Positions 2,818-21,067 of a DNA stretch of 64,000 nt are shown here, piece by piece; positions within the stretch are counted from its first letter, which is position 1, and each line of letters starts with the position of its first letter. A program made the translations under genes and the position numbers. Source of the DNA: an uncultured Actinomycetes bacterium (GTDB lineage: Bacteria > Actinomycetota > Thermoleophilia > UBA2241). The notes beneath the pieces are model-generated. The model had not been told where the DNA came from and ran no database searches. It saw only the letters and a list, made by a program, of their open reading frames with translations. Where the stretch lies: positions 288,001 to 352,000 of the forward strand of contig CAVYCN010000004.1 of assembly GCA_963767005.1 (NCBI GenBank). The letters run 5' to 3'.

Positions 2818-4698
2818 TCAGTCGGCGTTCCGCGCGACGGCGAAGGCGCCCGTGTGGTCGACGACCGCCCACGCGGTGTGCGTGGCGGGGTCGACGCCGT
2901 AGGCGCCGAGGCCGTAGCCCGCCTCCCAGGGGCCGACGACGGACTTGGGCGTGCCGCCCGCGTTCGCGTCGACGGCCTTCACCCAGCGGCCGCTCGCGTC
3001 CATCGCCACGAGCGTGAGGTCGTGGCCGTGGCAGCCGCGGTAGCTCAGCGAGAGCGCATAGGTGTCGCTCTTCGAGGCGCCCACGTCGGACAGGCCCCAG
3101 AGCGTGAAGACGTTGCTCGCGAGAACGTCGCGCGAAGTGTCGCAGCTCCAGCCGGTGGTGACGTCCTTGGTGAAGGCACGACCTTCGGAGTCGGTGGCCG
3201 TGCTCGTGTTCGTGCCGCCGAGGATCTGGGCCGTCGTGCCGCCGAAGCTGTCCTTGACCGTCGTGTACGGCTTGCCCTCTGGCACGAAGAACTCCTTGCC
3301 CTTCAGGCCGTAGCCGAACGACTCTTCCTTCACGAAGTTGAGGTAGGGCGTGCTCGCGATGGTGTACTCGCTGTGGTTGCTCGCCAGGGTCGGGTTGCTC
3401 ACCGGCGCAGCGTAGTAGTCGACCGTGACGTTGGCGCCGTCGACCGTGACGATGTAGTAGCCGACCTTGTTCAGGTCCTGGGCGATCGGCGTCTCACGGG
3501 TGTTGCCGGTGAAGGGCTGGCCCGCGCCGGTCAGCCCCTGGGCCTTCGCCAGGGCGACATCGAACAGGTAGTCGTTGGTCTGCGTGGGATCGGCCTTGGT
3601 CAGGTAGGGCGTGCCGTCCGTCACCGTGGCCGAGCTGCCGCTGCCCGTGATCGTCTGTGTGGGTGCGCCGATCTCGCCGTAGGGCAGGTAGTACTTCGAG
3701 GCGTCGGACTGGCAGACGATGTCCTGGACGCTCGACTTGCCGTCGGGGCTCGTGTCGACGGCGCGGTTGTACATGTGGTCGTGGCCGCCGATGTAGTAGT
3801 GCACGCCGGCCTTCTGCAGGTCGCTGATGAAGGTGTCCTGCAGGGCGGGCTGCTGCAGCGGGTTGGCGCCGAACAGGTCGTCCTGGTGGCTCTGGGTGAT
3901 GATCCCCTTGTGGGCGAAGACGAAAGCCTGGGTGCCAGCCGGGCGGCTGGTGAGCTCGCTGTTCATCCAGTTCACGTCGTCGGCCGTCAGGGCTTCGTGA
4001 GCCGGCACGGTCGTGTCGGGGCTCGTGAACTGATCGACGAAGACCAGGCGGGCGTTGCGGTAGTCGACCGCATAGTCGAGGCCGGCGAAGCCCTTGGGGG
4101 CCGCGTTGGTCACGACCGCGCCGCACTCGAAGGGCTCGCTCAGCACAGACGCGAACGGCTGCAGGGGATCGTTGCCGGTGGGGTTGAAGGCGCTCGACGG
4201 CGTGGTGCTCATGACCCCCGTCTGCGTCTGTGGATAGTTGGCCACGAGGGCGGCGCCCTGGCCGTCGTCGTGGTTGCCGCTCACGGGGTAGAAGCCGATG
4301 CCGGCGTTGTAGAGATCCTGCGCGAAGGCGGCGCGGGCAGCCTCATTGGCGGCCGAGCCGGTGTCGACGAGGTCGCCGACCTCGACCACGAACTTGACGT
4401 TCTTCTGGATGAACTGGTTGTCGAGCTGGCGGGCGATGTCGACCGAGCAGGTGAACGGGTTGCGGCCGTCGTCGGCCACTGTCCACTGCGTGTCGGCCTC
4501 GATGCCGAACGACCAGGCTTTGCTCGAGCGAACGTAGCTCGAGTCGGCGCACTTGAGATGCGTGGGCAGCACGCCGCGGCCGAACGGCTGCACCGACGCT
4601 GCGGCGCCCGCCGGCGAGCCGGCCAGAGCGACCAGACCGGCGCTCGCCATCACGGCGACGCCCGCGAGCAGCGCCGTCGCCTTTGCCATCCTCTTCAC
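2818..4698 (-). CDS. Secreted calcineurin-like metallophosphoesterase
   Basis: Signal peptide; intact ADTQ, GDLVD, GNHD, FAHK and GGHDH motifs; GTG start with GGAGGG RBS. Confidence 0.85.
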   Translation of the reverse strand: MKRMAKATALLAGVAVMASAGLVALAGSPAGAAASVQPFGRGVLPTHLKCADSSYVRSSKAWSFGIEADTQWTVADDGRNPFTCSVDIARQLDNQFIQKNVKFVVEVGDLVDTGSAANEAARAAFAQDLYNAGIGFYPVSGNHDDGQGAALVANYPQTQTGVMSTTPSSAFNPTGNDPLQPFASVLSEPFECGAVVTNAAPKGFAGLDYAVDYRNARLVFVDQFTSPDTTVPAHEALTADDVNWMNSELTSRPAGTQAFVFAHKGIITQSHQDDLFGANPLQQPALQDTFISDLQKAGVHYYIGGHDHMYNRAVDTSPDGKSSVQDIVCQSDASKYYLPYGEIGAPTQTITGSGSSATVTDGTPYLTKADPTQTNDYLFDVALAKAQGLTGAGQPFTGNTRETPIAQDLNKVGYYIVTVDGANVTVDYYAAPVSNPTLASNHSEYTIASTPYLNFVKEESFGYGLKGKEFFVPEGKPYTTVKDSFGGTTAQILGGTNTSTATDSEGRAFTKDVTTGWSCDTSRDVLASNVFTLWGLSDVGASKSDTYALSLSYRGCHGHDLTLVAMDASGRWVKAVDANAGGTPKSVVGPWEAGYGLGAYGVDPATHTAWAVVDHTGAFAVARNAD

Positions 4699-4887
4699 GG
4701 TTCCCTCCCGAGTCACTTGCAGGGCTTGCGGCATGAGCGGTCGGCCTGCGCGCCGGCGACGCGCGCACCCCCCTCCTTTCGCTCGCACCGGCTCCTCTTG
4801 CCGGAGCCGGGTCTCGCGTCGCGACGCGGCGACCGGGCGTCTCCCACCCGGCTCGTCGCGCACGCCCGCAGGGCGACCAGCGAGGCA

Positions 4888-4942
4888 AGGCTAGAGGGCG
4901 GCCGCGAGCTTTCGATGAGGGTCGGGGAAGGTTGGCGTTACG
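4888..4942 (-). promoter_or_regulatory. Putative Pho-box-type promoter of metallophosphoesterase (degenerate)
   Basis: -10 TAGCCT (4888-4893); in-register hexamers GCTCGC (4904-09), CCTCAT (4915-20), CCTTCC, CGTAAC at 11-bp period; more in-phase units at 5001/5012/5023. Confidence 0.45.
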
Positions 4943-5050
4943 CCGTGGTTGCGACCGCCGCTCCTGTCGCCGCCCCCGTCGCTTCGCCAGTTCGGGCGGT
5001 GCGAGCATGCAGTGAGCAGGTCGTTGCGGCGTCGCCGCCGCGATGCTCAC

Positions 5051-5094
5051 GCTCACGTTTTCCTCACCATGCGCTCACATCAGCCGGGTAGAGT
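5051..5094 (+). promoter_or_regulatory. Pho-box-type promoter (three 11-bp-period repeats plus -10)
   Basis: GCTCAC 5051, CCTCAC 5062, GCTCAC 5073, then 10 bp, then TAGAGT 5089-5094. Confidence 0.8.
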
Positions 5095-5157
5095 GCCCGC
5101 CGGGAATCCGCCGGCCGGGCCAGGCCTTGCCGCGTAACGACGTCCTGGAATGAAAGG

Positions 5158-6120
5158 GTGGCAACGTTGCTGCACACACGCTACGGGCGCAGCCTGCTCC
5201 TGGTCGTGCTCGGCCTGGCGGTGGCGGGCGGCGCGCTCTGCGTCGGCGCACCCGTGGCCCGCGCGGCCCTCGGTCCGCAGCAGATCGACGCCTTCCTGCT
5301 CGAGCAGGGATCGCCGCTTGCCGGGGAGGGAGAAGCCTTCTACCTCGCTGCCGAGCGCAACGGTGTCGACCCCGCCTTTCTCGTCGCCATATCCGGCGCC
5401 GAGTCGAGCTTCGGCCGGTTCCTCTTCTCGAGTGGCTCCCTGACGGCCACGTACAACGCCTTCAACTGGTTCTACGCACCCACGCGGGCCGGCAGCGCCT
5501 TCGCGAGCTGGAGCGAAGCGATCGACACGGTGGCGGCCGGCTTGCGCGGCCCCCTCTACTACGGCGCCGGTCGCTACAGCGTGGCGGCGATCGCTCCGGT
5601 CTACTGCCCGCAGGGCACGCAGGACTGGGTGACCAACGTCACGCTGTACATGCAGGAGCTCGGCGCCGACCCCGCGGACACCCGCTGGCCGGCGGCGACA
5701 CTCGGCGCCGGCGCGACCAGGAGCGCCGCGGTGACGCTGGCCGGGTCGGGCGGCGCGACGCTCGTCGTCGAACACCCGATCACCGTCGTGCCTCGGCGGG
5801 TCGCGGCCGGCACCCGCGTGCGCATCCGTTTCACGCTCACCGACGGTGGCCTCGCGGCCGAGACCTGGCAGGCCGTCGTCCTGCGCCTCGAAGGACCGGG
5901 CGGACAGGAGCTCGCCCTTGGTACCCGTGCGCCGCTAAGGCTCGGCGCGGGACGCTCCTTCGCCTTCGTCGCGAGCCTGTGCCTGACGGCGGCGGGCCGC
6001 TGGCGCGGCTGGATCGACGCGCAGACGCAGGCCGGCGCGCTGGTGAGCCGTGCCCGGCCCGTCCTGTGGGTCGAGGTCGCGGCCGCCTCAGGCCGCGCTG
6101 CGCGGCGCGACGACCGGTGA
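5158..6120 (+). CDS. Secreted lysozyme-fold/glucosaminidase (GH73-like) peptidoglycan hydrolase with C-terminal beta-sandwich domain
   Basis: Signal peptide; AERNGVDPAFLVAISGAESSFG with catalytic-type Glu, YNAFNW, FASWSEAI, VYCP..DWVTNV. Confidence 0.7.
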   Translation: MATLLHTRYGRSLLLVVLGLAVAGGALCVGAPVARAALGPQQIDAFLLEQGSPLAGEGEAFYLAAERNGVDPAFLVAISGAESSFGRFLFSSGSLTATYNAFNWFYAPTRAGSAFASWSEAIDTVAAGLRGPLYYGAGRYSVAAIAPVYCPQGTQDWVTNVTLYMQELGADPADTRWPAATLGAGATRSAAVTLAGSGGATLVVEHPITVVPRRVAAGTRVRIRFTLTDGGLAAETWQAVVLRLEGPGGQELALGTRAPLRLGAGRSFAFVASLCLTAAGRWRGWIDAQTQAGALVSRARPVLWVEVAAASGRAARRDDR

Positions 6121-6900
6121 GCCGTCGCGCTCCTCGACGTCGCGTCGCCAGGGCAGGCGCTTGCCGACGGTCGCGCGCAGCTTGAAGCGGAGCGATTTGT
6201 CTTCGAGCGCGAGAGCCTCGCGCAGCCCGGCGAGACGCCTGACCACCGCGGCCCGCTGCGCCGCCGGGACGTCGTAGCGCGCCACTGCGGCGACCGTGTC
6301 GAGGTTGGCGCAGACGTCGACGAAGGTACCCCAGTCGCGGGCGCAGACCTGGGCGATGCGGCGCATGCAGATCGAATGCTCGTCGTCGCTCTCGCTGAGC
6401 GGCAGGTCCTTGAGCAGGCCGATCACGTCGTGGACGTCTTTGTCGGCGAGGCGTCCGATCTGCAGCTTCGAGAGCAGCACGTCGGCCGGCGAGATCGCCC
6501 ACGGGTCGATGTCGAGCCGGCCGCGCAGGTCGATGTCGTGGTCCATACGGATCACGTCGAGGAACACGTCGACGTGGTCAGCCGGGTCGAGCGTCCGCAC
6601 GAACTGGAGCTGACCGCCGGCCGTCGCCTCGGCGACGTGCCGGTTCTCGGCGTAGCCCTCACGCGCGAGGGCGCGAGGCAGCCGTGCGGCCTCCGCGGAG
6701 GAGCCGACCACGTCGATGTCCGAGAACTCGCGCGCCATGAAGGTGCGGTCGACGGCGTAGCGGTAGGCGGCGAGGCCACCGGCGAGCCGCAGACGCACCC
6801 CATCGTGGGCTGCCTCCTCGATGAGCGTGAGCGCGTGCGCGAGGCGGCGATCCGCGGCGTGCCTGCGCGCCGTCCGGTCGCTGTCGTCGCTCGAGGACAT
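6088..6900 (-). CDS. Nucleotidyltransferase-family protein
   Basis: RLAGGLA...SDIDVV (hG[GS]-x-DhDh) plus HVDVFLD; ATG at 6900 with GGAGGAG RBS. Confidence 0.72.
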   Translation of the reverse strand: MSSSDDSDRTARRHAADRRLAHALTLIEEAAHDGVRLRLAGGLAAYRYAVDRTFMAREFSDIDVVGSSAEAARLPRALAREGYAENRHVAEATAGGQLQFVRTLDPADHVDVFLDVIRMDHDIDLRGRLDIDPWAISPADVLLSKLQIGRLADKDVHDVIGLLKDLPLSESDDEHSICMRRIAQVCARDWGTFVDVCANLDTVAAVARYDVPAAQRAAVVRRLAGLREALALEDKSLRFKLRATVGKRLPWRRDVEERDGSPVVAPRSAA

Positions 6901-6961
6901 GCTCCTCCCGTCGGTCGGTCGTCTCGGGGCCGTTCGTCCGGCCCCACGGTCGTCCACTCGC

Positions 6962-7016
6962 AGTGTCGGCGCCCCGCGTTGGCTCGACATGAAGGACGCG
7001 TGAGTTTGCGGCGACC
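6962..7016 (-). promoter_or_regulatory. Putative Pho-box-type promoter of nucleotidyltransferase (degenerate)
   Basis: Minus-strand GGTCGC, ACTCAC, CTTCAT, GCCAAC at 11-bp period (7011/7000/6989/6978), then 10 bp, then GACACT (6962-67). Confidence 0.4.
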
Positions 7017-7128
7017 GCGCCTGGGCGGGGCTCGCGCGCCGGCGCGCCATCGTCCGCGTTCCGCGGGAGGATGCGACGAGCGGCCGCCCGTCGGTCAGGC
7101 ACTCGCAGGCGGCCGTTCGAAACGAGTC

Positions 7129-7194
7129 GCTAACGGAGCGCTCACCGACGTCTCTCACCGCGCTCATCGAGCGCTAGCGACGATCCGTCAGACT
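7129..7194 (+). promoter_or_regulatory. Pho-box-type promoter (five 11-bp-period repeats plus -10)
   Basis: GCTAAC 7129, GCTCAC 7140, TCTCTC 7151, GCTCAT 7162, GCTAGC 7173, then 10 bp, then CAGACT 7189-7194. Confidence 0.75.
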
Positions 7195-7238
7195 GGCGTG
7201 ACCCACGGGGGACGAACGTCCGAAGGAGAGATGGCAAG

Positions 7239-8873
7239 GTGAAGGGCTCGCGCAGGCGCCGGGTCGGCGCCAAGCCGGCGCTGCCGCTGGCCGTCTTCCT
7301 CGCGGCCGTCGCGGCGGTGGCCGTGTCGCACCCCGCTTGCGCGTGGGGAAAGGCTCGCTGGCTGGCGGGCGATCTCAGCACCGGCACCTACCTCACCGAC
7401 GGCAGGACCAGTGAGCACGTCATCGTGTCGAAGGTCATGGCCGACGATGCGTCCGGCTTCGGGCTCCGCTACCTGGCGAACGCCGAACCGGGCGGCCGAT
7501 CCGAGCGGAACGCCGCGGGCGTCAGGTTCACGCTTCCCGTGTGGCGCTGGCAGACGCTGATCTTCGAGTCGTTCCCGCAGATCGTCGCGGCGCGTCAGGC
7601 GCATCCCGACGATTACTTCATCCAGGGACTGCAGTGGGACGCGCCGACGCACGATCAGGTGACCGTGGGCATCGTCGGCAGCGCCAATGAGCCGCAGGCG
7701 GTCGCGGATTTCGAGTACAGGTTCGACGCGGCCGACACGGACACGAGCCGGTCTGACGAGAGCAAGCAGAACACGACGGCGCAGGACGCCTTGAAGGCGG
7801 CCTCCTGGCTGCAGAAGAACTACGCCGCGTCCAGCTACGCGTTCGTCGATCACCCCTCGCGTGACCTGGCGTGGACCGTGGGCGACCTGCGCGCCCTGCA
7901 GGACGCCGCGCCGTCGGTGGTGTGCGGCTTCGAGGGCTTTCCCGGCGATCAGGCGGCCGGCGCGCGAGGCGGCTACGGCGGCTACTTCGACGTGAGCGGC
8001 CACGAGGTGAGCGATCCCGCCGCGGCTGACCCGGTCGAGACGGCGCGTGCTCGCACCTACGGCGGCGCCGACGCGATGGTCGCGAAGGTGGGCGGCGTGT
8101 GGGACGCGCTCCTGGGTGAGGGCCGTCGCTGGTTCGTGTACGGCGACAGCGACTTCAAATGGTGGACGACGAGCTACAAGGACCAAAGCGGCAAGGTGGT
8201 GGGCTCCTCGTACTGCGACTTCTGGCCGGGCCAGTACGGCAAGACCTGGACCTGCGTGCCGAGGAGCGGCTACGGCGGTCTCGTGGCCGCCATCAAGTCG
8301 GGCGACTCGTTCATCGTGAACGGTGACCTCATCGACGCGCTCGATTTCCACGCCGCCTGCGGCAGCACCTCGAAGACGATGGGTCAGACGCTCACGGTCG
8401 GCAAGGGTCGCAGGATCGTGGTCACCATCCGCGTCAAGAGTCCGGCGAAGAACCACGACGGCCGCAAGGTGCACCCCGACCACATCGACCTGATCGCGGG
8501 TGCTGTCACAAGCCGGATCGCACCCTCGAGCCCGGCCTACCCGACACGGGACACGAACCCTACGGCGCACGTGGTGGTGAGCTTCCCCTGGGCGAAGATG
8601 CGCGTCATCAAGGGCTGGCGCGTGGCGACGGTCGCCTTCGTGCTGAAGAAGCGCATGTACTTCCGTCTGCGGGGCACCAATCTGGCGTGCGGCACGACCA
8701 ACCAGACGGATGCATCCGGCGATCCCCTGATCGACACCCTCAGTTACCAGACGCTGCCGAACCCGGACCCCGCGCAGGTCGCGGCGCAGCCGACGGTGAC
8801 CATCAACACGCCCAAGCAGGCCTGGGCCGACCTCTGGTTCTACAGCGACCCGGTCTTCGTCAAGGTCACGTGA
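7239..8873 (+). CDS. Secreted PHP-fold (histidinol-phosphatase-like) protein, apparently catalytically degenerate
   Basis: Signal peptide; WLAGD...TDG, HPSR, GFEGFPG, ARTYGGADAMVAKVGGVWDALLGEGRRW, DFWPGQYGKT, YFRLRGTN and WADLWFYSDP typical of secreted PHP-domain proteins, but expected His ligands are missing. Confidence 0.7.
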   Translation: MKGSRRRRVGAKPALPLAVFLAAVAAVAVSHPACAWGKARWLAGDLSTGTYLTDGRTSEHVIVSKVMADDASGFGLRYLANAEPGGRSERNAAGVRFTLPVWRWQTLIFESFPQIVAARQAHPDDYFIQGLQWDAPTHDQVTVGIVGSANEPQAVADFEYRFDAADTDTSRSDESKQNTTAQDALKAASWLQKNYAASSYAFVDHPSRDLAWTVGDLRALQDAAPSVVCGFEGFPGDQAAGARGGYGGYFDVSGHEVSDPAAADPVETARARTYGGADAMVAKVGGVWDALLGEGRRWFVYGDSDFKWWTTSYKDQSGKVVGSSYCDFWPGQYGKTWTCVPRSGYGGLVAAIKSGDSFIVNGDLIDALDFHAACGSTSKTMGQTLTVGKGRRIVVTIRVKSPAKNHDGRKVHPDHIDLIAGAVTSRIAPSSPAYPTRDTNPTAHVVVSFPWAKMRVIKGWRVATVAFVLKKRMYFRLRGTNLACGTTNQTDASGDPLIDTLSYQTLPNPDPAQVAAQPTVTINTPKQAWADLWFYSDPVFVKVT

Positions 8874-8949
8874 TGCCGGCGTGAGGCGTGCGCCGCCGCA
8901 GGCCGCGGACGATCCGTACGACGAGTCCATCGCGTGGCCCTCGCGCCAT

Positions 8950-8993
8950 GCTCACCGCGCGCTCACGGCGCGCTCACTCGAGCTGGGTATCGT
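8950..8993 (+). promoter_or_regulatory. Pho-box-type promoter (three perfect GCTCAC repeats plus -10)
   Basis: GCTCAC at 8950, 8961, 8972, then 10 bp, then TATCGT 8988-8993. Confidence 0.85.
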
Positions 8994-9005
8994 GCCGTGA
9001 CGCTG

Positions 9006-10701
9006 ATGGGCGACCCGATGCGGATGAACGACGAGCGGTCCGGACGGCGGCCGTTGCGGGTGGTGAGCGGCCGGCCGCGCCGCAGCGCGCGACGCGCAGC
9101 CCAGGTCCGACGCCGCCGGTTCGTCGCGCTCACCGTCATCGTGCTCGGGGGCCGGCGTGCTGTTCGCGAGCGGCGCTCTGCGGGCCGGCGCGGCGACGCC
9201 GCCGGGCGCCGGCGCGACGCTCGCCTCGATCGCCGGCACGACGACCGGCGACGTGTTCGACCAGCCCTCGGTGACGGCCAACGACGCGACGGCGAGCGGC
9301 GGCCGCCGCTCGTCCGACCTGGCGTTCCGTGACGGTGCGGCCAGCGTCAGCTCGACCCTGGTAGGTAGCGCGCTCCACTCCGAGAGCGATGTCTCTCTCA
9401 GCGACGTCAGCCTGCTGGGCGGCGTCGTCACGGCCGATGCCGTCGAGCTCGTGGCCACGGCCGACGCGAGCGCGCACTCGGCCGACGCCGGCATCGACGG
9501 CAGCTACGTGAGCGGCCTCTCGTCGACGGTCAGCCGGTGAGCGACGAGGAGCTTTCCGGCCCCATCGCCGTGCCCGATGTCGGCACCCTGACAGTGCTCA
9601 GCGCCGCCATCGACGCGAGCGCGCCGTCGCCGAGCGCGACCATCACCGGCCTTACGCTCGTGCTCGATCAGCAGGTCGACGGCCTGCCGGCCGGCAGCGT
9701 CGTCACGGTCGGCAGCGCGGTCGCGTCGGCCGACGCCGCTACCGCCGGCGAGCTGATCAAGATCGCGGCCGAGACGACCGGCCCCACGCCCTTGCCGGCG
9801 CCGACGCCCACCCCCAGCGCGGCGTCCACGTCGAAGGCCAAGCACTCACCCAGCGGCTCGACCGGGAGCGGCGGCTCGGCGACGGGCTCCTCGGGTGGCA
9901 GCGGCGGATCGGTCACCTCGATGCCGGCGCCGTCGGCGCCCAGCAAGGCGGTGCTCGACCGGTTCCCCGGGGCGGTGTTCCCGGTGCGCGGGCACGGTCG
10001 AGTTCACCGACACGTTCGGCGCCTACCGCGCAGACATAAAGGGGCACCGCCACGAGGGCAACGATCTCTTCGCGAAGATGGGCACGCCGATCGTCGCGGT
10101 GCTGGCCGGCACCATCGAGTACAGCACCTACGGGATCGGCGGCAACAACGCCCGCCTGACCGACGCGGCCGGCGACTACTTCTACTACGCACACATGGAG
10201 CGCTTCGCGGCAGGCCTGAAGACGGGGGACCATGTGGCCAAGGGACAGGTGATCGGCTACGTGGGTGAGACCGGCGACGCCGCCGGCACGTCGCCCCATT
10301 GCCACTTCGAGATCCACCCCGGCGGCGGCGCGGCGATCGACCCCTACCCCTACCTGCAGGCCTGGCGCGCCGCCGGCGCCGGGATCGGTCCCATCGACGC
10401 GACGACGCCGGTGGCCACCATCGTGGCGGCCGGCGTCGGCATCCCGCTCGCCGAGATCCTCGCCCGCCGGGGCGTGCTCGCCGTCGAGGCGAGCACGGCG
10501 CTCGCCGGCGGGCGCCGCGTCGTGCCGCGCGACGAGCCGGCCGGGGGCGTGCTCGAGCTGGTCCTGGCCGTGTCGTCGCTGGGCGGTGTCGCCGCGCTGC
10601 GGCGCCTGCGCGCGCCGGCGCTCCCCGAGCTGCTCGCCGAGCACGAGACCGTCGTGCGGCGCACCGTCGTGATCGCCGAACGCTCGCTCACGAAGTCTTA
10701 A
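9006..10701 (+). pseudogene. M23-family metallopeptidase with N-terminal TM and beta-rich domain, split by three frameshifts (pseudogene or sequencing error)
   Basis: Pieces in ORFs 8934.., 9157.., 9537.., 9895.. join into one protein; HEGND, YYAHM, GQVIGYVG.TG, HCHFE and IDPYPYL M23 motifs intact; shifts near 9147 (G5), 9520 and 9990. Confidence 0.75.
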
Positions 10702-10718
10702 CGTTTCGTCGCTATACT
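10686..10718 (+). promoter_or_regulatory. Pho-box-type autoregulatory promoter of phoB-phoR
   Basis: GCTCAC 10686, CTTAAC 10697, then 10 bp, then TATACT 10713-10718. Confidence 0.75.
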
Positions 10719-10760
10719 GCGGCTGCATCGCGTCAGGGGACGCAAGGAACGAGGGGTGCG

Positions 10761-11465
10761 ATGGCCAAGGAATCGATCCTCGTCGTCGACGACGAGCGTG
10801 AGATCCTCGAGCTGGTCAAGTACAACCTGACCAAGGAAGGCTACAACGTGGTGTGCGTCGAGACGGGCGAGGACGCCCTGAGCGCCGCGCGCCTCAAGCT
10901 GCCCGACCTGGTCCTGCTCGACCTCATGCTGCCCGGCGTCGACGGCCTCGAGGTGTGCCGCAAGCTCAAGGCCGACCCCAAGACGCAGGAGATCCCGGTC
11001 GTCATGCTGACCGCGAAGGGCGGCGAGGCCGACATCGTGGCCGGCCTCGAGCTGGGCGCCGACGACTACGTCACCAAACCCTTCAGCCCGCGTGTGCTCA
11101 CGGCGCGCATCAAGGCCGTGCTGCGGCGCGACCAGACCGAGGACGGCGACGGCCAGTCGACCGTCAAGATCAAGGACCTCGTCATCCACCCCGGTCGACA
11201 CCAGGTGCTCGTCGCCGAGCGGCCCGTCGACCTCACCGCGTCGGAGTTTCGCATCCTGCTGTTCATGGCGCGCAAGCCGGGCTGGGTGTTCACGCGTCAG
11301 CAGATCGTCGACGCCGCACAGGGCGATGACGTCTACGTCAACGAGCGCTTCGTTACCGACCGCTCGGTCGACGTGCACATCGTCTCGCTGCGCCGCAAGC
11401 TCGGACCGTGCGGCGGCTACATCGACACGGTCAGGGGTGTAGGCTACCGGCTCAAGGACGAGTGA
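10761..11465 (+). CDS. phoB: OmpR/PhoB-family response regulator (PhoB/PhoP)
   Basis: ILVVDDE, LLDLMLPG, GADDYVTKPFS, RSVDVHI..LRRKL and TVRGVGYR; next to phoR and pst. Confidence 0.9.
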   Translation: MAKESILVVDDEREILELVKYNLTKEGYNVVCVETGEDALSAARLKLPDLVLLDLMLPGVDGLEVCRKLKADPKTQEIPVVMLTAKGGEADIVAGLELGADDYVTKPFSPRVLTARIKAVLRRDQTEDGDGQSTVKIKDLVIHPGRHQVLVAERPVDLTASEFRILLFMARKPGWVFTRQQIVDAAQGDDVYVNERFVTDRSVDVHIVSLRRKLGPCGGYIDTVRGVGYRLKDE

Positions 11466-13582: not shown

Positions 13583-14650
13583 TCACCAGCAGGGCTTGCT
13601 GCCGGCCTTGATGCTGGAGTGCCAGACCTTCTCGATCGCCGTGATCGCCTTGCTCGGCAGCGGCACGAAGGTGAGCTTCTTGGTGTCGCTGACGCCCGTG
13701 CTGCTCTTGAGCGCCCAGTTGAAGAAGGTGAGCATGGCGTGCGCGTTCGCGTAGCTCGACTGGCTGCGGCGCACGAGGATGTACGTCTCGCCCGTGATCG
13801 GCCAGGCCGTCGTGCCCTTCATGTTCTCGAGGTTGGTGGCGAAGCCGTTCGTCCACGTGTACGAGGCGTGAGAACCGGCGGCGGCGAAGCTCTTCTCCGA
13901 CGGCTGGACCCAAGCACTCGAGGCGTTCTTCATCTGCGCGTAGGCGATGTGGTAGTTGACGGCCCAGCTGTACTCGTCGTAGCCGATCGAGTACGGCCTG
14001 GTCTTGACCGCGTTGGCCACGCCCGACGACTTGGCATAGCCAAGGCCGGTGGGCCAGCTGATCAGCATGCCCTGCTTGGTCCAGCCCGAGTAGGCCTTCT
14101 TGAGGTACATGGTGAAGATGTAGGTCGTGCCCGACTTGTCGGAGCGGTGAATGACCGTGATGGGCTTGGCCGGGAGGGTCAGGCCCGGGTTGATCGCCTT
14201 GATGCGACTGTCGTTCCACTTGGTGATCTTGCCCAGGTAGATCTGCGCCAGGACGGCGCCGGTGAGCTTCAGCTTGCCGGTCTTGGCGCCCATGTTGACG
14301 ATGGGCACGATCCCCTCGATGCACGAGGGAAACTGGACCAGCTGAGGCGACCCGTTCAGCGTTGGCGGGGTCCCGCCGGAGCGCGCCAGGGGCTGGTCGC
14401 TCGCGCCGAAGTTCACGGTGCCGGCCTCGATGGCGTTGATGCCCGCGCCCGAGCCGACTCCCTCGTAGATGACCTTGGCCGTCTTGGTGTAGTTGGAGGC
14501 CCACTGCTGGTAGAGGATCTGGGGCGCAGTCGCGCCGGCGCCGGTGATCGTCGGCACGGCGAAGGCCGCCGATGCGAAGACCAGCATGGCAAGCCCGACA
14601 CCGAGAGCGATGCCGCCTCGCACAGGCCATGATCTTGCCGATAGTCTCAT
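13583..14650 (-). CDS. pstS: Second phosphate-binding protein PstS (signal peptidase I type, no lipobox, Lys-rich)
   Basis: GAGAT, GVGSGAG, FGASD, HRSDKSGTT and WPITG PstS motifs; AFA signal cleavage site. Confidence 0.88.
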   Translation of the reverse strand: MRLSARSWPVRGGIALGVGLAMLVFASAAFAVPTITGAGATAPQILYQQWASNYTKTAKVIYEGVGSGAGINAIEAGTVNFGASDQPLARSGGTPPTLNGSPQLVQFPSCIEGIVPIVNMGAKTGKLKLTGAVLAQIYLGKITKWNDSRIKAINPGLTLPAKPITVIHRSDKSGTTYIFTMYLKKAYSGWTKQGMLISWPTGLGYAKSSGVANAVKTRPYSIGYDEYSWAVNYHIAYAQMKNASSAWVQPSEKSFAAAGSHASYTWTNGFATNLENMKGTTAWPITGETYILVRRSQSSYANAHAMLTFFNWALKSSTGVSDTKKLTFVPLPSKAITAIEKVWHSSIKAGSKPCW

Positions 14651-14922: not shown

Positions 14923-14960
14923 GATCCCGCGTCCGGCCTGCCGGACGCGGGAGTCTCGCC

Positions 14961-15956
14961 TCAGTTGGTGTAGTCGAACTCGTCGACCGGCGCGTTTGCC
15001 GTGCTCTGACCGGAGGCGTTGGTGACGAGAACATCCGCTGTGCCACTGCCGGCCGGCACGACGGCCGTGATGGTCCCGTCATCGACGACGGTGACGTCGG
15101 TGGCGGGGGTCGAGTCGAAGTCGACCTCGGTCGTGCCCGTGAAGTTGCTGCCCGCGATCGTGACGCTGTCGCCGGCCACGCCGGTGGCGGCGCCGGTGAC
15201 GGGATCCTTCGTGTTGGTGGTGGTATCGGTGACGCTCGTCACCTTCGGGAGCGACGACGTCGACGGTACGGTGAAGGTGTACCCGGCGTACATCGACGGC
15301 AGCGCCCACCCCGCCGGGGTCAGGACCGACACGTACAAGGAGGTGTTGGTGTTCGGGACCAGTGGCGTGTAGGCCGGAGAGGTGGCTGTGATCGTCGTGT
15401 CATTGACGACGGTGACGTTGGTGGCCGGGTCGAGGCCGAACCAGACGGCGGTCGCGCCCGTGAAGTAGGTGCCGGTGATCGTCACGGCCGTGCCACCGGT
15501 CATCGGGCCCGAAGTCGGGGCCACGAGCGTGATGTTCGGCAAGGGCAGGCGGTAGGTGTAACGTGCGGCCTTCGCTGCAGCGCTCATGGCGCCGGACTTG
15601 CCGACGACCCGCACCAGGACGGCGCCGGTGGCGTGGCTCGGTGCCATGACCGTGATCTTCCCCGCCGAGACCACGTGCACGTGGCTCGCGGCCTTGGTGC
15701 CGAAGAGGACCTTCTTGACCGCGCTCTTGCCGCCGCTCATGAAGTTCTTGCCGGTGATGGTGACCGTGTTGCCGCCGGTGGTCGGGCCGCTCGCCGCGCG
15801 GACGTGGGTCACGACCGGGCCGGCCGCCGCGAAGGCCAGGCCGGCCGAGGCCAGGCTGACGATCGCCAGCGCGACGAGCGCGAGCGTCAGCAGGCAGAGC
15901 GCGACCGGCCGCGCGCGTCGAGCCGATGGATGGAGTGTGCCGTTGCGTGTCCTCAT
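14961..15956 (-). CDS. Secreted protein with three IPT/TIG (Ig-like) domains
   Basis: Signal peptide; three repeats of P.VT.V...SGP..GG..VTITG.NF.....V.FG......VV....IT...P. Confidence 0.85.
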   Translation of the reverse strand: MRTRNGTLHPSARRARPVALCLLTLALVALAIVSLASAGLAFAAAGPVVTHVRAASGPTTGGNTVTITGKNFMSGGKSAVKKVLFGTKAASHVHVVSAGKITVMAPSHATGAVLVRVVGKSGAMSAAAKAARYTYRLPLPNITLVAPTSGPMTGGTAVTITGTYFTGATAVWFGLDPATNVTVVNDTTITATSPAYTPLVPNTNTSLYVSVLTPAGWALPSMYAGYTFTVPSTSSLPKVTSVTDTTTNTKDPVTGAATGVAGDSVTIAGSNFTGTTEVDFDSTPATDVTVVDDGTITAVVPAGSGTADVLVTNASGQSTANAPVDEFDYTN

Positions 15957-16058: not shown

Positions 16059-16102
16059 ACTCTAGTGAGTCGATGTGAACCGGACGTGAGCGCCGTATGA
16101 GT
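16059..16102 (-). promoter_or_regulatory. Pho-box-type promoter of IPT/TIG gene
   Basis: Minus-strand ACTCAT (16097-102), GCTCAC (16086-91), GTTCAC (16075-80), then 10 bp, then TAGAGT (16059-64). Confidence 0.8.
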
Positions 16103-16255: not shown

Positions 16256-16310
16256 GCTCACGGCAAAAACACCGGTCGCTAACAGGGCGCTAACCCGGCG
16301 ACGGTAACTT
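16256..16310 (+). promoter_or_regulatory. Pho-box promoter of pstSCAB-phoU
   Basis: GCTCAC 16256, AAACAC 16267, GCTAAC 16278, GCTAAC 16289, then 10 bp, then TAACTT 16305-16310. Confidence 0.85.
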
Positions 16311-16365
16311 CTCGCCCGGTGGCCGACGGCTGCCATCGTCCAGGGAAGGGACAAGGAGACCGTTG

Positions 16366-17472
16366 ATGAAGAGATCGAGAAGGTTCTGGTACGCAGTGGC
16401 CTTGGGTCTGGTCGCTCTTGTGGCGGCGGTCGCGCTCGCCGCCTGCGGCAACTCGAACTCGGGCACGTCGAGCAGCTCGAGCCCGTCGTCGGGCTCGGGT
16501 GGTGGCAGCAGCCTGCTCGGCTCTGGCTCGACCTTCGCCCAGCCGCTGTATTCGGCGTGGGCCCAGACCTACCAGGGCGTCGCGGGCGTCAAGCTGAACT
16601 ACCAGGGCGTGGGTTCGGGCACCGGCATCGCCAACATCGAGGCCAAGACGGTGCAGTTCGGCGCCACCGACGCGCCGCTCACCGAATCCGATCTGCAGAG
16701 CAACTCGCTCGTACAGTTCCCGACGGCCGTGGGCGGCACGGTGGTGATCGTCAATCTGAGCGACGTGCCGAACGGCAAGCTCGTGCTGAACGGTCCCACG
16801 CTCGCCAACATCTACCTCGGCAAGATCACCAAGTGGAACGACGCGGCGATCAAGGCCCTGAACCCCGGACTGACCCTGCCGTCGACCGCCATCCACGTGG
16901 TGCATCGCTCCGACAGCTCGGGCACGTCGTGGATCTTCACGAGCTACCTCTCCGCGGTGTCGCCCACGTGGAAGAGCCAGGTCGGCGCCGACAAGTCGCC
17001 CACCTGGCCGGTAGGGGCGGGCGGCGCCAAGAGCGCCGGCGTGGCCGCTCTCGTGGAGCAGATCAAGGGCTCGATCGGCTACGTCGAGTACTCGTACGCC
17101 AAGCAGAACGACATCAGCACCGCGCAGATGGTGAACGCTGCCGGCAAGACCCTCGTGCCGACACTGGCGGGCTTCGCGGCGGCCGCCAAGAACGCGACCT
17201 GGGACCCGAACCAGGGCTTCGCGCTGGCGATCGTCAACGAGTCCGGGGCGACCGCCTGGCCGATCACCGGCGCGACGTACGCCCTGGTGCAGAAGGACCA
17301 GCCCAGCGCCGCGACCGGCAAGATGATCCTCAAGTTCTTCGACTGGGGTTACAAGAACGGCGCCAGTCAGGCGCAGAGCCTGGACTACGTGCCGATCCCG
17401 GCCAGCGTCTACAGCGTGGTCGAGCAGCAGTGGTCACAGATCACGGCGGGCGGCAGCCCGGTGTGGCCGTGA
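16366..17472 (+). CDS. pstS: Phosphate ABC transporter substrate-binding lipoprotein PstS
   Basis: LAAC lipobox; GSGST, YQGVGSGTG, HRSDSSGTS and WPITGATY; AGGAG RBS. Confidence 0.95.
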   Translation: MKRSRRFWYAVALGLVALVAAVALAACGNSNSGTSSSSSPSSGSGGGSSLLGSGSTFAQPLYSAWAQTYQGVAGVKLNYQGVGSGTGIANIEAKTVQFGATDAPLTESDLQSNSLVQFPTAVGGTVVIVNLSDVPNGKLVLNGPTLANIYLGKITKWNDAAIKALNPGLTLPSTAIHVVHRSDSSGTSWIFTSYLSAVSPTWKSQVGADKSPTWPVGAGGAKSAGVAALVEQIKGSIGYVEYSYAKQNDISTAQMVNAAGKTLVPTLAGFAAAAKNATWDPNQGFALAIVNESGATAWPITGATYALVQKDQPSAATGKMILKFFDWGYKNGASQAQSLDYVPIPASVYSVVEQQWSQITAGGSPVWP

Positions 17473-17493
17473 TCTGATCGCACGCAGGCGGCG

Positions 17494-17527
17494 GCGGGCG
17501 GCGAAGCCCTTGGGCTTCGCCGCCCGC
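17494..17527 (+). other. GC-rich stem-loop between pstS and pstC (mRNA stabiliser or partial terminator)
   Basis: 16-bp arms GCGGGCGGCGAAGCCC / GGGCTTCGCCGCCCGC. Confidence 0.65.
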
Positions 17528-17571
17528 TCGTCGCGTTTCGGAGAACCGACGACTCACAGGCGGGTCCGGAG

Positions 17572-18564
17572 ATGAGTACAGTCGAGGCAGAGACAGGAAG
17601 ACAGCCGGGCGGGGCCGGCGCGCAGACCCACGCGCGGCGTCACCACTTCTCGTGGGGCGACCCGCTCTTTCGCTGGTTCACCGTCGCCTGCGCGGCGGCG
17701 GTGGCCCTCGCGATGGTCCTGCTCGTCGGGGTGCTGCTGAAGAACTCCTGGCTGGCGATCCACACGCTCGGCTTCAAACCCCTCACGCACGTCGCCTACG
17801 CGCCGCCGGACACCTATGGTGCCTGGTCGAGCCTCATCGGGACGTTCGTGACGACGATCATCGCCATGGTCATCGCGGTGCCGCTCGCCCTGGCCATCGC
17901 CCTGCTGCTGGTCGAGCTCGTGCACCCCATCGTGTCGCGGGTCGTCGGCACGACGATCGAGATGCTCGCGGCCGTGCCCAGCATCATCTTCGGCATGTGG
18001 GGCCTCTGGATCGTCGTCCCGCTCATGTACAACCACGTGGAGCCCTGGATCCAGGCGACCCCGCTCGGTCGGCTGGCGCTCTTCGGCGGCACGCCGTACG
18101 GCACCGACATCTTCACGGCGGGCGTCGTGCTCAGTCTCATGATCCTGCCGTTCGTCACTGCCGTCTCGCGCGACGTGCTGAAGATGGTGCCGACCGTCAC
18201 CAAGGAGGCGGGCTACGGCATGGGGTCGACCACCTGGGAAGTCATGCGCAAGGTCAGCATGCCGTACGCCCTGTCGGGCATCGCCGGCGCGGTGTTCCTG
18301 GGGCTCGGCCGGGCCCTCGGCGAGACCATGGCGGTGGCGCTGATCATCGGTGGCGGTTTCACCGGCTTCCCGCACAGCCTGTTCGCTCAGGGCACCACAG
18401 TGTCGGCCACGATCGCGCTCAACTTCGGTGACGCCACGTCGAAGCTCGAGACGAGCATGCTCATCGAGCTCGCGCTCATCCTGTTCGCCATCACCATGGT
18501 GTTCCAGGCGCTCGCTCAGCTCTGGCTGGCGCGCGCTCGCCGCATGTCGGGGAGCCGGGCATGA
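17572..18564 (+). CDS. pstC: Phosphate ABC transporter permease PstC
   Basis: IEMLAAVPSIIFGMWGL and LGLGRALGETMAV. Confidence 0.95.
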   Translation: MSTVEAETGRQPGGAGAQTHARRHHFSWGDPLFRWFTVACAAAVALAMVLLVGVLLKNSWLAIHTLGFKPLTHVAYAPPDTYGAWSSLIGTFVTTIIAMVIAVPLALAIALLLVELVHPIVSRVVGTTIEMLAAVPSIIFGMWGLWIVVPLMYNHVEPWIQATPLGRLALFGGTPYGTDIFTAGVVLSLMILPFVTAVSRDVLKMVPTVTKEAGYGMGSTTWEVMRKVSMPYALSGIAGAVFLGLGRALGETMAVALIIGGGFTGFPHSLFAQGTTVSATIALNFGDATSKLETSMLIELALILFAITMVFQALAQLWLARARRMSGSRA

Positions 18565-18595
18565 GCGCCGACAGCATAGGCTCCGCCGGCCTCCC

Positions 18596-19465
18596 ATGAA
18601 GCGGCGCAACGTGGCCGGCCGGAGGCTCACGAACAGGCTTGTCACGACCGGTGCCTGGGTCGCGGCGACGATCGGCATCTTCGTGATGGCCTGGATCGTC
18701 TACACGGTCGTCAGGCGCGGCATCGGCGCCTGGAACCTGGACTTCTTCACGAAGACGCCGCCGCAGGGTCAATGGTTGTCGGGCCACGGCATCGCGAACT
18801 GCATCGTCGGCACCATCCTCATCACTGGCGGTGCGGCTATCGTCGGCCTGCCGCTCGGCTTCTTCGGCGCGATCTACCTGTCGGAGTTCGGTCGCACGGG
18901 GCGCATCGCCACGGTGATCCGCGCCATCACCAACATCGTGCTCGGCGTGCCCTCGATCATCGCCGGCCTGTTTGCCTACGGCCTGATCGTGGTGACCCAG
19001 CACCACTACTCGGGCTTCGCCGGGTCGTTCGCCCTCATGTTCATCATGCTGCCGGTCATGACGCGCACGGCCGAGGACATTCTGAACCTGGTGCCCAACG
19101 AGCTCCGCGAGTCGGCCCTCGCCATGGGCGTGCCCCGCTGGCGCGCGACGCTCGGCGTGGTCGTCAAGGCCGCGCGCGGCGGCCTGATCACCGGCGGTAT
19201 TCTCGCCGTAGTGCGCGTCGCCGGCGAGACCGCGCCCCTGCTGTTCACCGCCCTCAGCAGCCCCTACTGGGTCACGGCGCGCGGGTCGTCGAGCTACTTC
19301 GGCGGCCCGACGGCGAACCTCACGAAGTTCATCTGGGACTACTCCAACGACCCGGATCCCCGCATGGTGCAGATGGCCTGGGGCGCGGCGCTGCTGATCA
19401 TCGTCGCCGTGCTCGGCGCCAACGTCCTGACAAGGCTTCTCTTTCAGCGAGGCAAGGAATGGTAG
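18596..19465 (+). CDS. pstA: Phosphate ABC transporter permease PstA (true start may be 18561)
   Basis: [23 protein letters not shown] and [12 protein letters not shown]. Confidence 0.93.
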
Positions 19466-19470
19466 AGCTC

Positions 19471-20334
19471 ATGGACACGACCGAACCAGGCGCGCCGCCC
19501 CCGGTCGCCAGGCCGTTGCCGCCGCGGCTCGAAGTGACCACCCAGGGCGGCGGTCACGAGGCGGCCGAGTTCGACGCGTTGCCCAGCAAGCTGTCGGTGC
19601 GCGGCCTGAACTTCTTCTACGGCAAGGAGCAGGCGCTCTTCGGTAACGACCTCGACGTCAAGGAGCACCGCGTCACCGCGATCATCGGCCCGTCCGGCTG
19701 CGGCAAGTCGACTCACCTGCGCTGCTACAACCGCATCTACGAGCTCTACCGGGACCAGAAGGCCTCGGGCGAGATCGTGCTCGACGGTGAGAACATCCTG
19801 GCGTCGGGCACCGACCTGCTCGGCCTGCGTCGGCGCGTGGGCATGATCTTCCAGAAGCCGAGCCCGTTCCCCATGACCGTGTTCGACAACGTCGCTTACG
19901 GTCTGCGCATGCACTTCAAGCTGTCGCGGTCGGAGCTCGCCGAGCGCGTCGAGGACGCCCTCAAGCGCGGCGCCCTGTGGGACGAGGTCAAGCACAAGTT
20001 GAACGAGCCCGGCCTCGCCCTGTCCGGTGGTCAGCAGCAGCGCCTCTGCATCGCGCGCGCGATCGCCGCCGAGCCCGAGCTCATCCTCATGGACGAGCCC
20101 TGTTCGGCGATCGACCCGGTCGCCACGGGCAAGATCGAGGAGCTCGTCCAGGAGCTCAAGTCGTCGTACACGATCGCTCTGGTCACCCACAACATGCAGC
20201 AGGCCGCCCGCGTGTCCGACTACACGGCCTTCTTCTTCGAGGGCCGCATCATCGAGTTCGGCGCCACGACGCAGATCTTCGAGAACCCACTTCAGAAGCA
20301 GACAGAGGAATACATCACCGGCCGCTTCGGCTGA
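19471..20334 (+). CDS. pstB: Phosphate ABC transporter ATPase PstB
   Basis: [32 protein letters not shown] and EEYITGRFG. Confidence 0.97.
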
Positions 20335-20347
20335 TCCAGGGGAGTCC

Positions 20348-21067
20348 ATGGCGACACAGCTACAGCGCGAGATCGGCAACCTGAAGAAGAGCATCCTCAC
20401 CCTGAGCGCCCTCGTCGAGGACAATCTGCGGCGCGCCTTCGAGGCCACCGAGCGCCGCGACGAGGCCCTCGCCACCGAGGCCATCGAGCGCGACTTCCCG
20501 ATCGACGTCATGGAGGTCGACGTCGAGGAGGACTGCCTCAAGGCGCTGGCCCTCTACCAGCCGGTGGCCGGCGACCTGCGTTTCATCGTCACCACCATCA
20601 AGATCAACACCACGCTCGAGCGCGTCGGCGACCTCGCCGTGAACATCGCCGAGCGCGCCCGGGAGCTGGCCGGCCTCGATCAGCCGGTCATGGCCTTCGA
20701 CATGACCGGCATGGCGGGCAAGGCGCAGCGCATGGTGGCAAGCGCCCTCGACGCGCTGGTGCGCTCCGACGCGGGCCTGGCGCGCGCCGTCCTGTTGGCC
20801 GACGACGAGGTCGACGACCTCGACCGCGAGATGACCGCCCGGCTGCACGAGGTCGTGCGCGAGCACCCCGAGTGGTTCGAGCCGGTCATGCAGCTTCTGC
20901 AGATCTCACGCTTCATCGAGCGCGTGGCCGACCACGCGACGAGCATCGCCGAAGACGTCATCTACATGGTCGAAGGCGAGATCCCGCGTCACTCGGTCAA
21001 GCGCGCCGTGGCCGAGGCGATGGGCTTCAACGGCACGACGACGCCGCCGAGCTCCCGGCTGGGCTGA
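20348..21067 (+). CDS. phoU: Phosphate signalling complex protein PhoU
   Basis: QPVAGDLR, LERVGDLAVNIA and IERVADHATSIAEDVIYMVEG. Confidence 0.95.
   Translation: MATQLQREIGNLKKSILTLSALVEDNLRRAFEATERRDEALATEAIERDFPIDVMEVDVEEDCLKALALYQPVAGDLRFIVTTIKINTTLERVGDLAVNIAERARELAGLDQPVMAFDMTGMAGKAQRMVASALDALVRSDAGLARAVLLADDEVDDLDREMTARLHEVVREHPEWFEPVMQLLQISRFIERVADHATSIAEDVIYMVEGEIPRHSVKRAVAEAMGFNGTTTPPSSRLG

Follow-up and report, generated by a model that had tools for sequence, protein, structure and literature searches.

A predicted actinobacterial-type PHO-box regulon of nine promoters, with peptidoglycan hydrolase genes among its putative targets, in an uncultured Thermoleophilia genome

Although Pho regulons are a textbook subject, little is known of what they contain beyond a handful of model organisms. 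In Escherichia coli, PhoB activates transcription in the class II manner via region 4 of sigma-70, from 11-bp repeats that take the place of the −35 element and stop 10 bp short of the −10; its own gene is autoregulated, and the core target is pstSCAB-phoU. In Caulobacter and its relatives, phosphate starvation leads to stalk growth with localised wall remodelling, and M23-type endopeptidases take part in stalk and bud morphogenesis of related species; we know of no direct PhoB boxes on hydrolase genes in Caulobacter. The locus described here lies in a 64,000-nucleotide stretch of DNA (hereafter, the window; contig CAVYCN010000004.1, positions 288,001 to 352,000) from an uncultured Actinomycetes bacterium of the class Thermoleophilia. 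Within an island of 18 kb, a pstSCAB-phoU operon, a phoB-like and a phoR-like gene, a second pstS and several genes of other kinds stand behind promoters of one architecture. We read them as an actinobacterial-type PHO-box regulon of nine promoters, predicted from sequence, with a probability of roughly 0.75–0.8.

Three described systems in Gram-positive bacteria bear on this reading. The PHO boxes of Streptomyces coelicolor are reported as 11-nt direct repeats, two to six or more per operator, near the −35 region of pstS and phoU, with weaker extension units beside the core units and a consensus of G(G/T)TCAYYYR(G/C)G; a T at unit position 2 is reported as needed for PhoP binding in Streptomyces (PMC2275107). 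The PhoPR system of Bacillus subtilis is presented as having a Gram-positive PhoR with a PAS domain and a phosphate response tied to the cell envelope (PMC6232261). WalRK (YycFG) of the Bacillota is presented as an OmpR-family regulator system with direct-repeat sites that controls peptidoglycan hydrolases (PMC7299342).

The genome examined (3.44 Mb on 19 contigs, 71% G+C, completeness rating 100%) has metagenome-assembled genomes, labelled Thermoleophilia or uncultured Actinomycetes, as its nearest named relatives. Genes between 2.8 and 21.1 kb of the window were called from third-position G+C content and family searches. They run in the order Metallophos (minus strand), P1, P3 (minus), P2, M23, phoB, phoR, pstS2 (minus), TIG (minus), pstS, pstC, pstA, pstB and phoU, where the first five encode metallophosphoesterase-, glucosaminidase-, nucleotidyltransferase-, PHP- and M23 peptidase-like proteins and TIG a protein with IPT/TIG domains. 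The initial annotation had reported seven repeat arrays in this region; all were confirmed on reading the sequence and fall into a single register once aligned on the −10. They are listed here with two weaker arrays, in order of position.

4888–4942, minus strand: Metallophos promoter, weak array; −10 TAGCCT; 16.6 bits
5051–5094, plus strand: P1 promoter; three in-register units and one abutting out of register; −10 TAGAGT
6962–7016, minus strand: P3 promoter, weak array; −10 GACACT; 16.7 bits
7129–7194, plus strand: P2 promoter; five units, one degenerate; −10 CAGACT
8950–8993, plus strand: M23 promoter; three perfect GCTCAC units; −10 TATCGT
10686–10718, plus strand: phoB promoter; two units; −10 TATACT; overlaps the last M23 codons
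14711–14754, minus strand: pstS2 promoter; three units; −10 TACAGT
16059–16102, minus strand: TIG promoter; three units; −10 TAGAGT
16256–16310, plus strand: pstSCAB-phoU promoter; four units; −10 TAACTT

In all seven strong promoters a (G/C)CT(C/A)AC unit recurs every 11 bp, and the last unit ends exactly 10 bp before a TAnnnT-like −10; the remainder of the unit, positions 7–11 after the hexamer, shows no strong letter preference. The best match to TTGACA at a spacer of 16–18 bp reaches at most three of six positions in any of the seven. The lack of a usable −35, together with repeats at that position, is what is expected of promoters that need an activator in place of the −35 contact.

The signal lies in the clustering of the units and their full architecture, not in the hexamer itself. 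GCTCAC alone is common (4580 copies on both strands), and across the genome hexamer pairs are as frequent at 12-bp spacing as at 11 bp (16 and 12, respectively); these counts speak for the reading that the arrays at non-transport genes are chance or compositional look-alikes with no regulatory role. The strict two-unit pattern was found 12 times in the genome (both strands), eight of them within the 18-kb stretch, which also holds all three of the three-unit matches. A matrix trained on the window gave eight positions above 24 bits at a period of 11 and a gap of 10, as against 0–1 at each of 24 other settings, a test that is circular for its training sites. For a second matrix, the training set was confined to 21 promoters of pstS, pstS2 and phoB in relatives, with nothing from this genome and no non-canonical gene. 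It gave eight positions above 22 bits at the same period and gap, six of them in the island, as against 0–1 at the 24 other settings. Over 6.9 million genome positions this second matrix ranked P1 first (37.6 bits), pstS2 second (36.0), M23 third (34.5) and TIG fourth (34.2), followed by phoB in fifth place (28.4), a site on another contig (C10) in sixth and pstS in seventh (26.2). Among 4000 random 350-bp windows, the best score per window reaches 5.5 at the 99th percentile, 15.4 at the 99.9th and 19.1 at most. A genome-wide matrix scan of the kind proposed with the initial annotation thus places the island sites at the top, and does so at one period and one gap; these ranks come from a matrix blind to the sites in question, which argues against chance. 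The two arrays described earlier as weaker barely exceed the random 99.9th percentile; that of P3 is kept in 6/6 genomes, that of Metallophos only in part.

For the conservation and synteny comparison, which had also been proposed, 40 kb around the P2 orthologue were taken from nine relatives (only 30.6 kb in one, G008, where the contig ends), and the island proteins were mapped onto these loci to find orthologues. Six congeners keep the same gene set, with island proteins 55–80% identical and PhoB at about 93%. Boxes are kept, in the correct orientation, ahead of congener orthologues. At P1 they are present in 7/7 genomes of the main set, and in 9/9 with two more congeners (19.1–37.6 bits); at TIG in all five genomes that have the gene (29.6–35.7 bits); and at pstS2 in 7/7 (26.9–36.5 bits). 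Eight of nine genomes have them at phoB, including another genus (28.4–29.7 bits in those eight), and eight of nine at pstS, including two other genera (26.2–34.1 bits in those eight). The P3 boxes score 14.0–21.8 bits across 6/6 genomes. The P2 promoters all exceed the random 99th percentile (7/7; 8.4–24.9 bits), three of the seven exceed the 99.9th, and the −10 is CAGACT in all of the orthologous promoters that were printed. M23 boxes are found in 4/7 genomes (28.7–34.5 bits in those four); in the three without one, the M23 gene directly follows P2 (in G011 it starts 5 nt past the end of P2) and would thus be transcribed from that gene's promoter. Where the Metallophos gene is full-length, in three genomes, its boxes score 16.6, 14.4 and 6.1 bits and are thus partly kept. 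Unit letters vary among genomes; register and distance are constant. The compared genome pairs differ by 0.27–0.65 in synonymous divergence, so unconstrained sequence had time to drift, and with 9/9, 5/5 and 6/6 orthologous promoters kept at P1, TIG and P3, respectively, chance resemblance at the non-transport genes has next to no probability left.

The distribution of boxes beyond the genus gives the predicted regulon a history. Two other genera of the family have boxes at pstS and phoB only, and P1 orthologues in five other genera (43–46% identity) have none (0/8; best scores −7.3 to 1.8). On this distribution the P1 hydrolase is a recruit to the predicted regulon gained within one genus. 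Gene orders compared across genera suggest an older arrangement of HAD, phoBR, pstSCAB-phoU and SpoIID, into which new genes, each behind a box of its own, would have come on either side of phoBR. Distant homologues of P2, present in 6 of 300 further genomes from the phylum, showed no pairs of G(G/T/C)TCA(C/T) or triples of TCA(C/T) at 11 bp in a narrow search (a fixed stretch per locus, only roughly upstream at three minus-strand loci) that does not exclude phosphate control.

The regulator and kinase genes lie within the island, between M23 and pstS2:

10776–11465, plus strand: phoB-like OmpR-family response regulator; 249.5–251.2 bits on the PhoB model TIGR02154
11504–13312, plus strand: phoR-like histidine kinase with Pfam HAMP, PAS, HisKA and HATPase domains and a transmembrane segment

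Position, autoregulation and the pst targets make this PhoB the natural reader of the boxes, and it likely binds them. They could also be read, instead or in addition, by another OmpR-family regulator of the MtrA, WalR or GlnR kind, in which case the island would be a wall regulon touching pst. In Streptomyces, MtrA and GlnR sites overlap PhoP sites. This genome encodes seven OmpR-type regulators, whose scores are similar; on the PhoB model the island regulator leads them (251.2 bits, as against 225 for the next). On the MtrA model it comes fifth, the best match being a different gene 130 kb away. The kinase scores 379.8 bits on the NCBIfam model PnpS (cut-off 400), 364.9 on WalK (725) and 289.6 on the proteobacterial PhoR (334.2), under the cut-off in each case, and the proximity of the first two gives the alternative some footing; so does the description of WalRK as governing the peptidoglycan hydrolases of Bacillus (PMC7299342). 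Against it, pstS, pstS2 and the regulator itself have the strongest and most widely kept boxes, in two other genera too, and no nitrogen gene, nor any wall-synthesis gene outside the island, is among the 21 genome-wide matches above 15 bits. We therefore consider such another reader very unlikely, and retain the island PhoB in that role.

Set beside the described systems, the predicted regulon agrees with E. coli PhoB in repeat geometry, autoregulation and pst targets, as far as these can be read here, and departs from it in its unit (CTGTCAT-type in E. coli), in its regulator, which at 251 bits stays under the PhoB cut-off of 296.2, and in belonging to the Actinomycetota. It would share the link between starvation and the wall with Caulobacter, which is an alphaproteobacterium. 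The likeness to Streptomyces PhoP, as its boxes are described, lies in the 11-bp direct repeats, in a (G/C)CT(C/A)AC unit that resembles the consensus, and in both being actinobacterial; that consensus is not matched, however, as position 2 is mostly C here and positions 7–11 are unconserved; the site would work alike without being the same site. Regulon content differs as well, and the word peptidoglycan is absent from a review covering phosphate control in Streptomyces and related Actinobacteria (PMC7866108). The kinase has the same build of transmembrane segment, HAMP, PAS, HisKA and HATPase as that described for Bacillus PhoPR, but there the envelope is linked through the synthesis and breakdown of wall teichoic acid, whereas here the link would be through co-regulated peptidoglycan hydrolases, with no Glyphos_transf, GDPD or PhoD found. 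The likeness to WalRK includes the kinase score of 364.9 bits on the WalK model, which is far below the cut-off of 725, and the boxes here stand foremost at phosphate transport genes. A literature search over the main text of papers returned nothing on peptidoglycan hydrolases as direct Pho-box targets, and nothing on Thermoleophilia with Pho boxes. Systems of this kind are known; the content of this regulon and its recent assembly in one genus are not described in the literature searched.

Two of the top three promoters in the genome precede putative peptidoglycan hydrolases:

5158–6120, plus strand: P1, 320 aa, secreted protein with a GH73-like N-acetylglucosaminidase domain (residues ~37–178) and a C-terminal beta-sandwich
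9006–10701, plus strand: M23 metallopeptidase gene (Pfam Peptidase_M23), read in three frames that switch near 9147, 9522 and 9990

The N-terminus of P1 is signal-like and looks cleavable. Its structural model has a mean predicted local distance difference test score (pLDDT) of 76.8, with low confidence in the loop at 83–112. The description of P1 as glucosaminidase-like was borne out by a fold search over residues 37–178, which returned GH73 glucosaminidase domains as the best matches, 8yxk at Z 12.5 (root-mean-square deviation 2.4, 119 aligned residues), 7pj3 at Z 10.9 and 5wqw at Z 8.8; the Pfam Glucosaminidase match, at 17.6 bits, is below its cut-off of 30.2. A profile of 35 homologues matches GH73 chains at E-values of 0.017 and 0.069. 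Residue E82, invariant in the 35 homologues, aligns to the Glu of the HET motif in 5wqw, which we take to be the catalytic residue of GH73. An assignment of P1 to the SLT_2 lytic transglycosylases (a weak Pfam match at E 0.0083, with some homologues so labelled) was rejected, as the fold search favours GH73.

The M23 gene matches Peptidase_M23 at 75.2 bits (cut-off 28.7) and keeps the HEGND (HxxxD) and HCH (HxH) motifs. Relative to G011, it lacks two bases near 9147 and one near 9522 and has one extra near 9990. The earlier identification of an M23 hydrolase therefore holds for the domain, the metal motifs and the box, and not for an intact reading frame, which is broken three times here; in six congeners one open reading frame (ORF) covers the gene from end to end (in G011, 566 aa counted from the chosen start). 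The relatives' proteins have an N-terminal transmembrane helix (detected by helix scan), a beta-rich domain, a Pro/Ser/Gly linker, the M23 domain and a second hydrophobic segment near the C-terminus that was read by eye and is absent from the scan list. The 514-aa protein P0244, which begins where the middle frame in the window begins, is 99% identical across the last 235 residues and reads through the second and third breaks. Those two are thus peculiar to this assembly, and may be assembly errors or fresh decay. Of seven DNA sequencing runs found to hold this sequence with small shares (0.06–0.16), by a search that gave no RNA run, four were examined over 8900–10800; they left the break points at 9147 and 9522 uncovered and covered only the stretch just after 9990. 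In the assemblies of the relatives, several orthologues align as two abutting pieces in a frame-shift-like manner: P3 (~19.1–19.8 kb) and TIG (~32.8–33.8 kb) in G003, and phoR in G008 (~15.5–17.3 kb) and G022 (~31.7–33.4 kb), in coordinates of the composite sequences L029+L030, L031+L032 and L037+L038. Indel errors may accordingly be common in these metagenome assemblies, which bears on the broken M23 gene.

Two side observations concern the same gene. Its middle part (9157–9540) has a weak match to the NCBIfam choice-of-anchor P family (E 0.00033, under cut-off). At its end, the phoB box lies within the last M23 codons (10675–10718), and two units encode the conserved C-terminal AERSLTKS; over the phoB box, the relatives' M23 proteins end in ERTLTKS or ERSLTNS. 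Protein end and operator would therefore constrain one another. Transcription of the M23 gene can also run on into phoBR.

The remaining products of the island are as follows:

2818–4863, minus strand: calcineurin-like metallophosphoesterase (Metallophos), longest ORF 681 aa; Pfam Metallophos, E 2.4e-08
6088–6900, minus strand: P3, 270 aa, nucleotidyltransferase-like; Pfam NTP_transf_5, E 0.00094, under cut-off
7239–8873, plus strand: P2, 544 aa, secreted PHP-fold protein with C-terminal beta-sandwich domains
13583–14650, minus strand: second PstS (pstS2); TIGR00975, 288.1 bits (cut-off 205)
14961–15956, minus strand: secreted or anchored protein with three IPT/TIG domains (TIG); Pfam TIG in three stretches, E 8.4e-31
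16363–17472, plus strand: pstS; NF008171, 371.4 bits (cut-off 339)
17572–18564, plus strand: pstC; Pfam BPD_transp_1, syntenic orthologues
18570–19465, plus strand: pstA, start approximate; BPD_transp_1 in ORF 18350–19465, orthologues
19560–20334, plus strand: pstB, start approximate; ABC_tran in ORF 18772–20334, orthologues align from residue 2
20360–21067, plus strand: phoU, start approximate; TIGR02135, 184.7 bits (cut-off 130.25), orthologues align from residue 1

The initial annotation took the PHP-like protein P2 for a secreted phosphoesterase, which now appears doubtful: the PHP fold is present, but six family-conserved His residues are replaced. The model of P2 (pLDDT 89.4) finds 3e38, a PHP-like phosphoesterase, as its best Foldseek match (E 1.4e-05), then 7ug9 and 2anu, although template-modelling scores to PHP structures are low (0.25–0.58). 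No Pfam family matches at E up to 1; NCBIfam CehA/McbA reaches 27.9 bits (cut-off 80), and named homologues are annotated as CehA/McbA family metallohydrolases. P2 has S47, G49, P84, Q140, D237 and K307 where 21, 25, 17, 16, 23 and 20 of 25 distant homologues, respectively, have His, and retains E83, H138, H205 and D305; its ten closest relatives share four of the six His losses. On the strength of the family pattern (HxH, EH, HEH, H, H, DxH), we take its His, Asp and Glu positions to be metal ligands. P2 is probably a PHP-derived protein without the usual metal centre, not a canonical phosphoesterase, and since most of the metal-binding His are lost, it likely binds rather than cleaves. Its ratio of nonsynonymous to synonymous divergence (0.21–0.33) resembles that of pstS2 and indicates purifying selection.

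The resemblance of P3 to nucleotidyltransferases is weak; its Atlas neighbours belong to a nucleotidyltransferase family by name. The only plausible phosphoesterase of the regulon is the 681-aa Metallophos protein, behind a weak box. Its likely start is a Met at about 4689, ahead of a signal-peptide-like stretch, and its translation keeps the GDxxD, GNHD and GHxH (GHDH) motifs; all Atlas neighbours are Metallophos proteins, and no solved structure is related to it by sequence. The TIG protein has an N-terminal hydrophobic segment in translation and also matches the choice-of-anchor Z repeat at 47.2 bits, over the cut-off of 30.

The release of phosphate from teichoic acids, put forward in the initial annotation, finds no supporting enzyme. 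Whole-genome family searches, with controls positive in known genomes, returned no Glyphos_transf (TagF), GDPD (GlpQ), PhoD, Alk_phosphatase (PhoA) or PhoX. With none of these families found in a genome whose completeness is rated 100%, the teichoic-acid idea is left without an enzyme, and these searches did not turn up the phosphatase arm that a Pho regulon usually has, either. What stands of the earlier view of a Pho island is the shared and conserved architecture at pstS, pstS2, an autoregulated phoB and the hydrolase, PHP-like and TIG genes; the secreted phosphoesterase is doubtful for P2, and the teichoic-acid part finds no support.

We propose that, at low phosphate, PhoR would phosphorylate PhoB, and that PhoB-P would bind the units head to tail, oligomerising, and replace the missing −35 contact for RNA polymerase, as PhoB of E. 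coli is known to do and as the 11-nt PhoP repeats of Streptomyces suggest (PMC2275107). It would then co-induce the Pst transporter with PhoU, the second PstS and its own operon, together with the secreted GH73-like glucosaminidase and the membrane-anchored M23 endopeptidase (intact in relatives, frame-shifted here), as well as the PHP-fold protein, the IPT/TIG surface protein and the nucleotidyltransferase-like protein, and more weakly the metallophosphoesterase. The least supported step of this scheme is what the wall enzymes are for. That the cell remodels its own peptidoglycan in a controlled way when starved of phosphate is our tentative preference, held at a little under even odds, because the M23 protein of relatives looks membrane-anchored and no secreted phosphatases or nucleases were found. 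Some purpose of another kind is possible, if on the unlikely side, and scavenging from foreign walls is rather unlikely.

Outward action, the mining of walls or necromass raised in the initial annotation, deserves a fuller statement, as it would leave the regulon as described and have the wall enzymes open dead or neighbouring cells, releasing phosphorus-rich contents or wall polymers to the metallophosphoesterase and the two PstS proteins. The cleavable-looking signal peptide of P1 and its C-terminal beta-sandwich, of a kind that is often carbohydrate-binding, are consistent with this, as are a Metallophos protein with a signal-like N-terminus encoded divergently to P1 and two pstS genes that are co-regulated by prediction. 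The usual secreted phosphatases were not found, so another route to organic phosphate would be useful. Yet the relatives' M23 looks membrane-anchored, which fits the cell's own wall; the Metallophos box is weak and partly conserved; and the PHP-fold protein has lost its His ligands. Nor was a teichoic-acid polymerase, GlpQ or PhoD family found, or a nuclease seen among the predicted regulon. Taken together, we regard an outward-acting set of wall enzymes as improbable.

Several observations weigh against the PHO-box regulon with its wall enzymes as we propose it. The regulator falls below the PhoB cut-off, and the kinase is nearly equal on PnpS and on WalK, the model of a wall-homeostasis kinase. 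C occupies position 2 in 43 of the 56 training units, unlike the T described for Streptomyces PhoP. The P2 promoter reaches only 14.9 bits with the relatives-trained matrix, and the M23 gene as assembled cannot yield a full-length product. As P1 boxes are present in 9/9 genomes of the genus and in 0/8 loci of five other genera, the wall link is young and could be of small physiological weight. Finally, the purpose given to the wall enzymes is drawn from topology and context only.

Further boxed genes lie outside the window in the same genome:

Contig C10, 62675–63073, minus strand: gene for a 133-aa protein; four-unit box at about C10:63137–63191, sixth in the genome ranking
Contig C4, 281310–282708, 5.3–6.7 kb before the window: STAS-domain gene and a gene with HTH_23, sigma-70 region 4 and HNH-repeat matches (HTH gene)
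Contig C4, 527335–528714, minus strand: gene for a secreted protein with Pfam peptidase A4 and Big_13 Ig-like domains; box of two units at 21.9 bits, TAGGCT following after 10 bp

The 133-aa protein appears helical by eye, with no apparent signal peptide and a conserved YLAARTYDQVR near its end; it has no Pfam or Protein Data Bank relative. Strong boxes precede 12/12 copies of its family in 10 genomes of the genus (21.9–30.4 bits), some of which carry the gene inside the island, and it is probably a core member of the predicted regulon. Correctly spaced boxes precede the STAS and HTH genes (20.9 and 21.3 bits, respectively). The HTH gene sits behind the 133-aa gene within the island of G002 and G003, with boxes of 28–30 bits, and has a box to itself, at 23.5 bits, in G001 and G007; a boxed HTH gene suggests a second regulatory layer under PhoB. 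Four other off-island matches (C13:25150, C6:175763, C19:148032 and C3:108065) were not counted as members, having no convincing downstream gene or no telling family.

The island is flanked upstream by Nramp, Usp and HAD genes and downstream by a minus-strand gene with a SpoIID/LytB domain and an NlpC/P60 gene that has SLH repeats. The latter two, at 21079–24443, directly follow phoU, in relatives as well. In G013 and G022, of other genera, a SpoIID gene also follows phoU, and NlpC/P60 likewise in G013. Neither gene has a box; their place next to phoU, even in other genera, indicates that the pho locus sits in an old neighbourhood of wall enzymes. Horizontal acquisition of the island was considered and rejected, as G+C is flat (0.68–0.72) over the stretch and the flanks are syntenic in the genus. 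In G002 and G003 (L028 and L030, about 6.4–11 kb in), a second, divergent pst-like set of pstS, pstC, pstB and phoU paralogues (27–42% identity) lies between phoR and pstS2; near it, G003 has three GCTAAC-like units without a good −10.

These data make a regulon legible almost wholly from sequence in an uncultured class, and its strongest predicted targets apart from transport are peptidoglycan hydrolases and proteins whose function is unknown, rather than phosphatases. A bolder picture, to which we give a low probability, is that the Pho regulon was rebuilt in one uncultured Thermoleophilia genus, its phosphatases replaced by an envelope module that re-cuts the cell's own wall or mines foreign ones and captures what is released. 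The parts of such a module would be the GH73 glucosaminidase, the membrane-anchored M23 enzyme, a catalytically dead PHP binding protein, the TIG surface protein and the second PstS. Such a starvation-triggered wall programme, if real, would have no described counterpart in any Gram-positive lineage. The PHP-fold protein, without metal ligands yet under purifying selection and predicted phosphate control, may be a pseudo-enzyme. For the family, the locus offers a dated case of regulon growth, in which genes appear to have been inserted at the pho locus, each bringing its own box.

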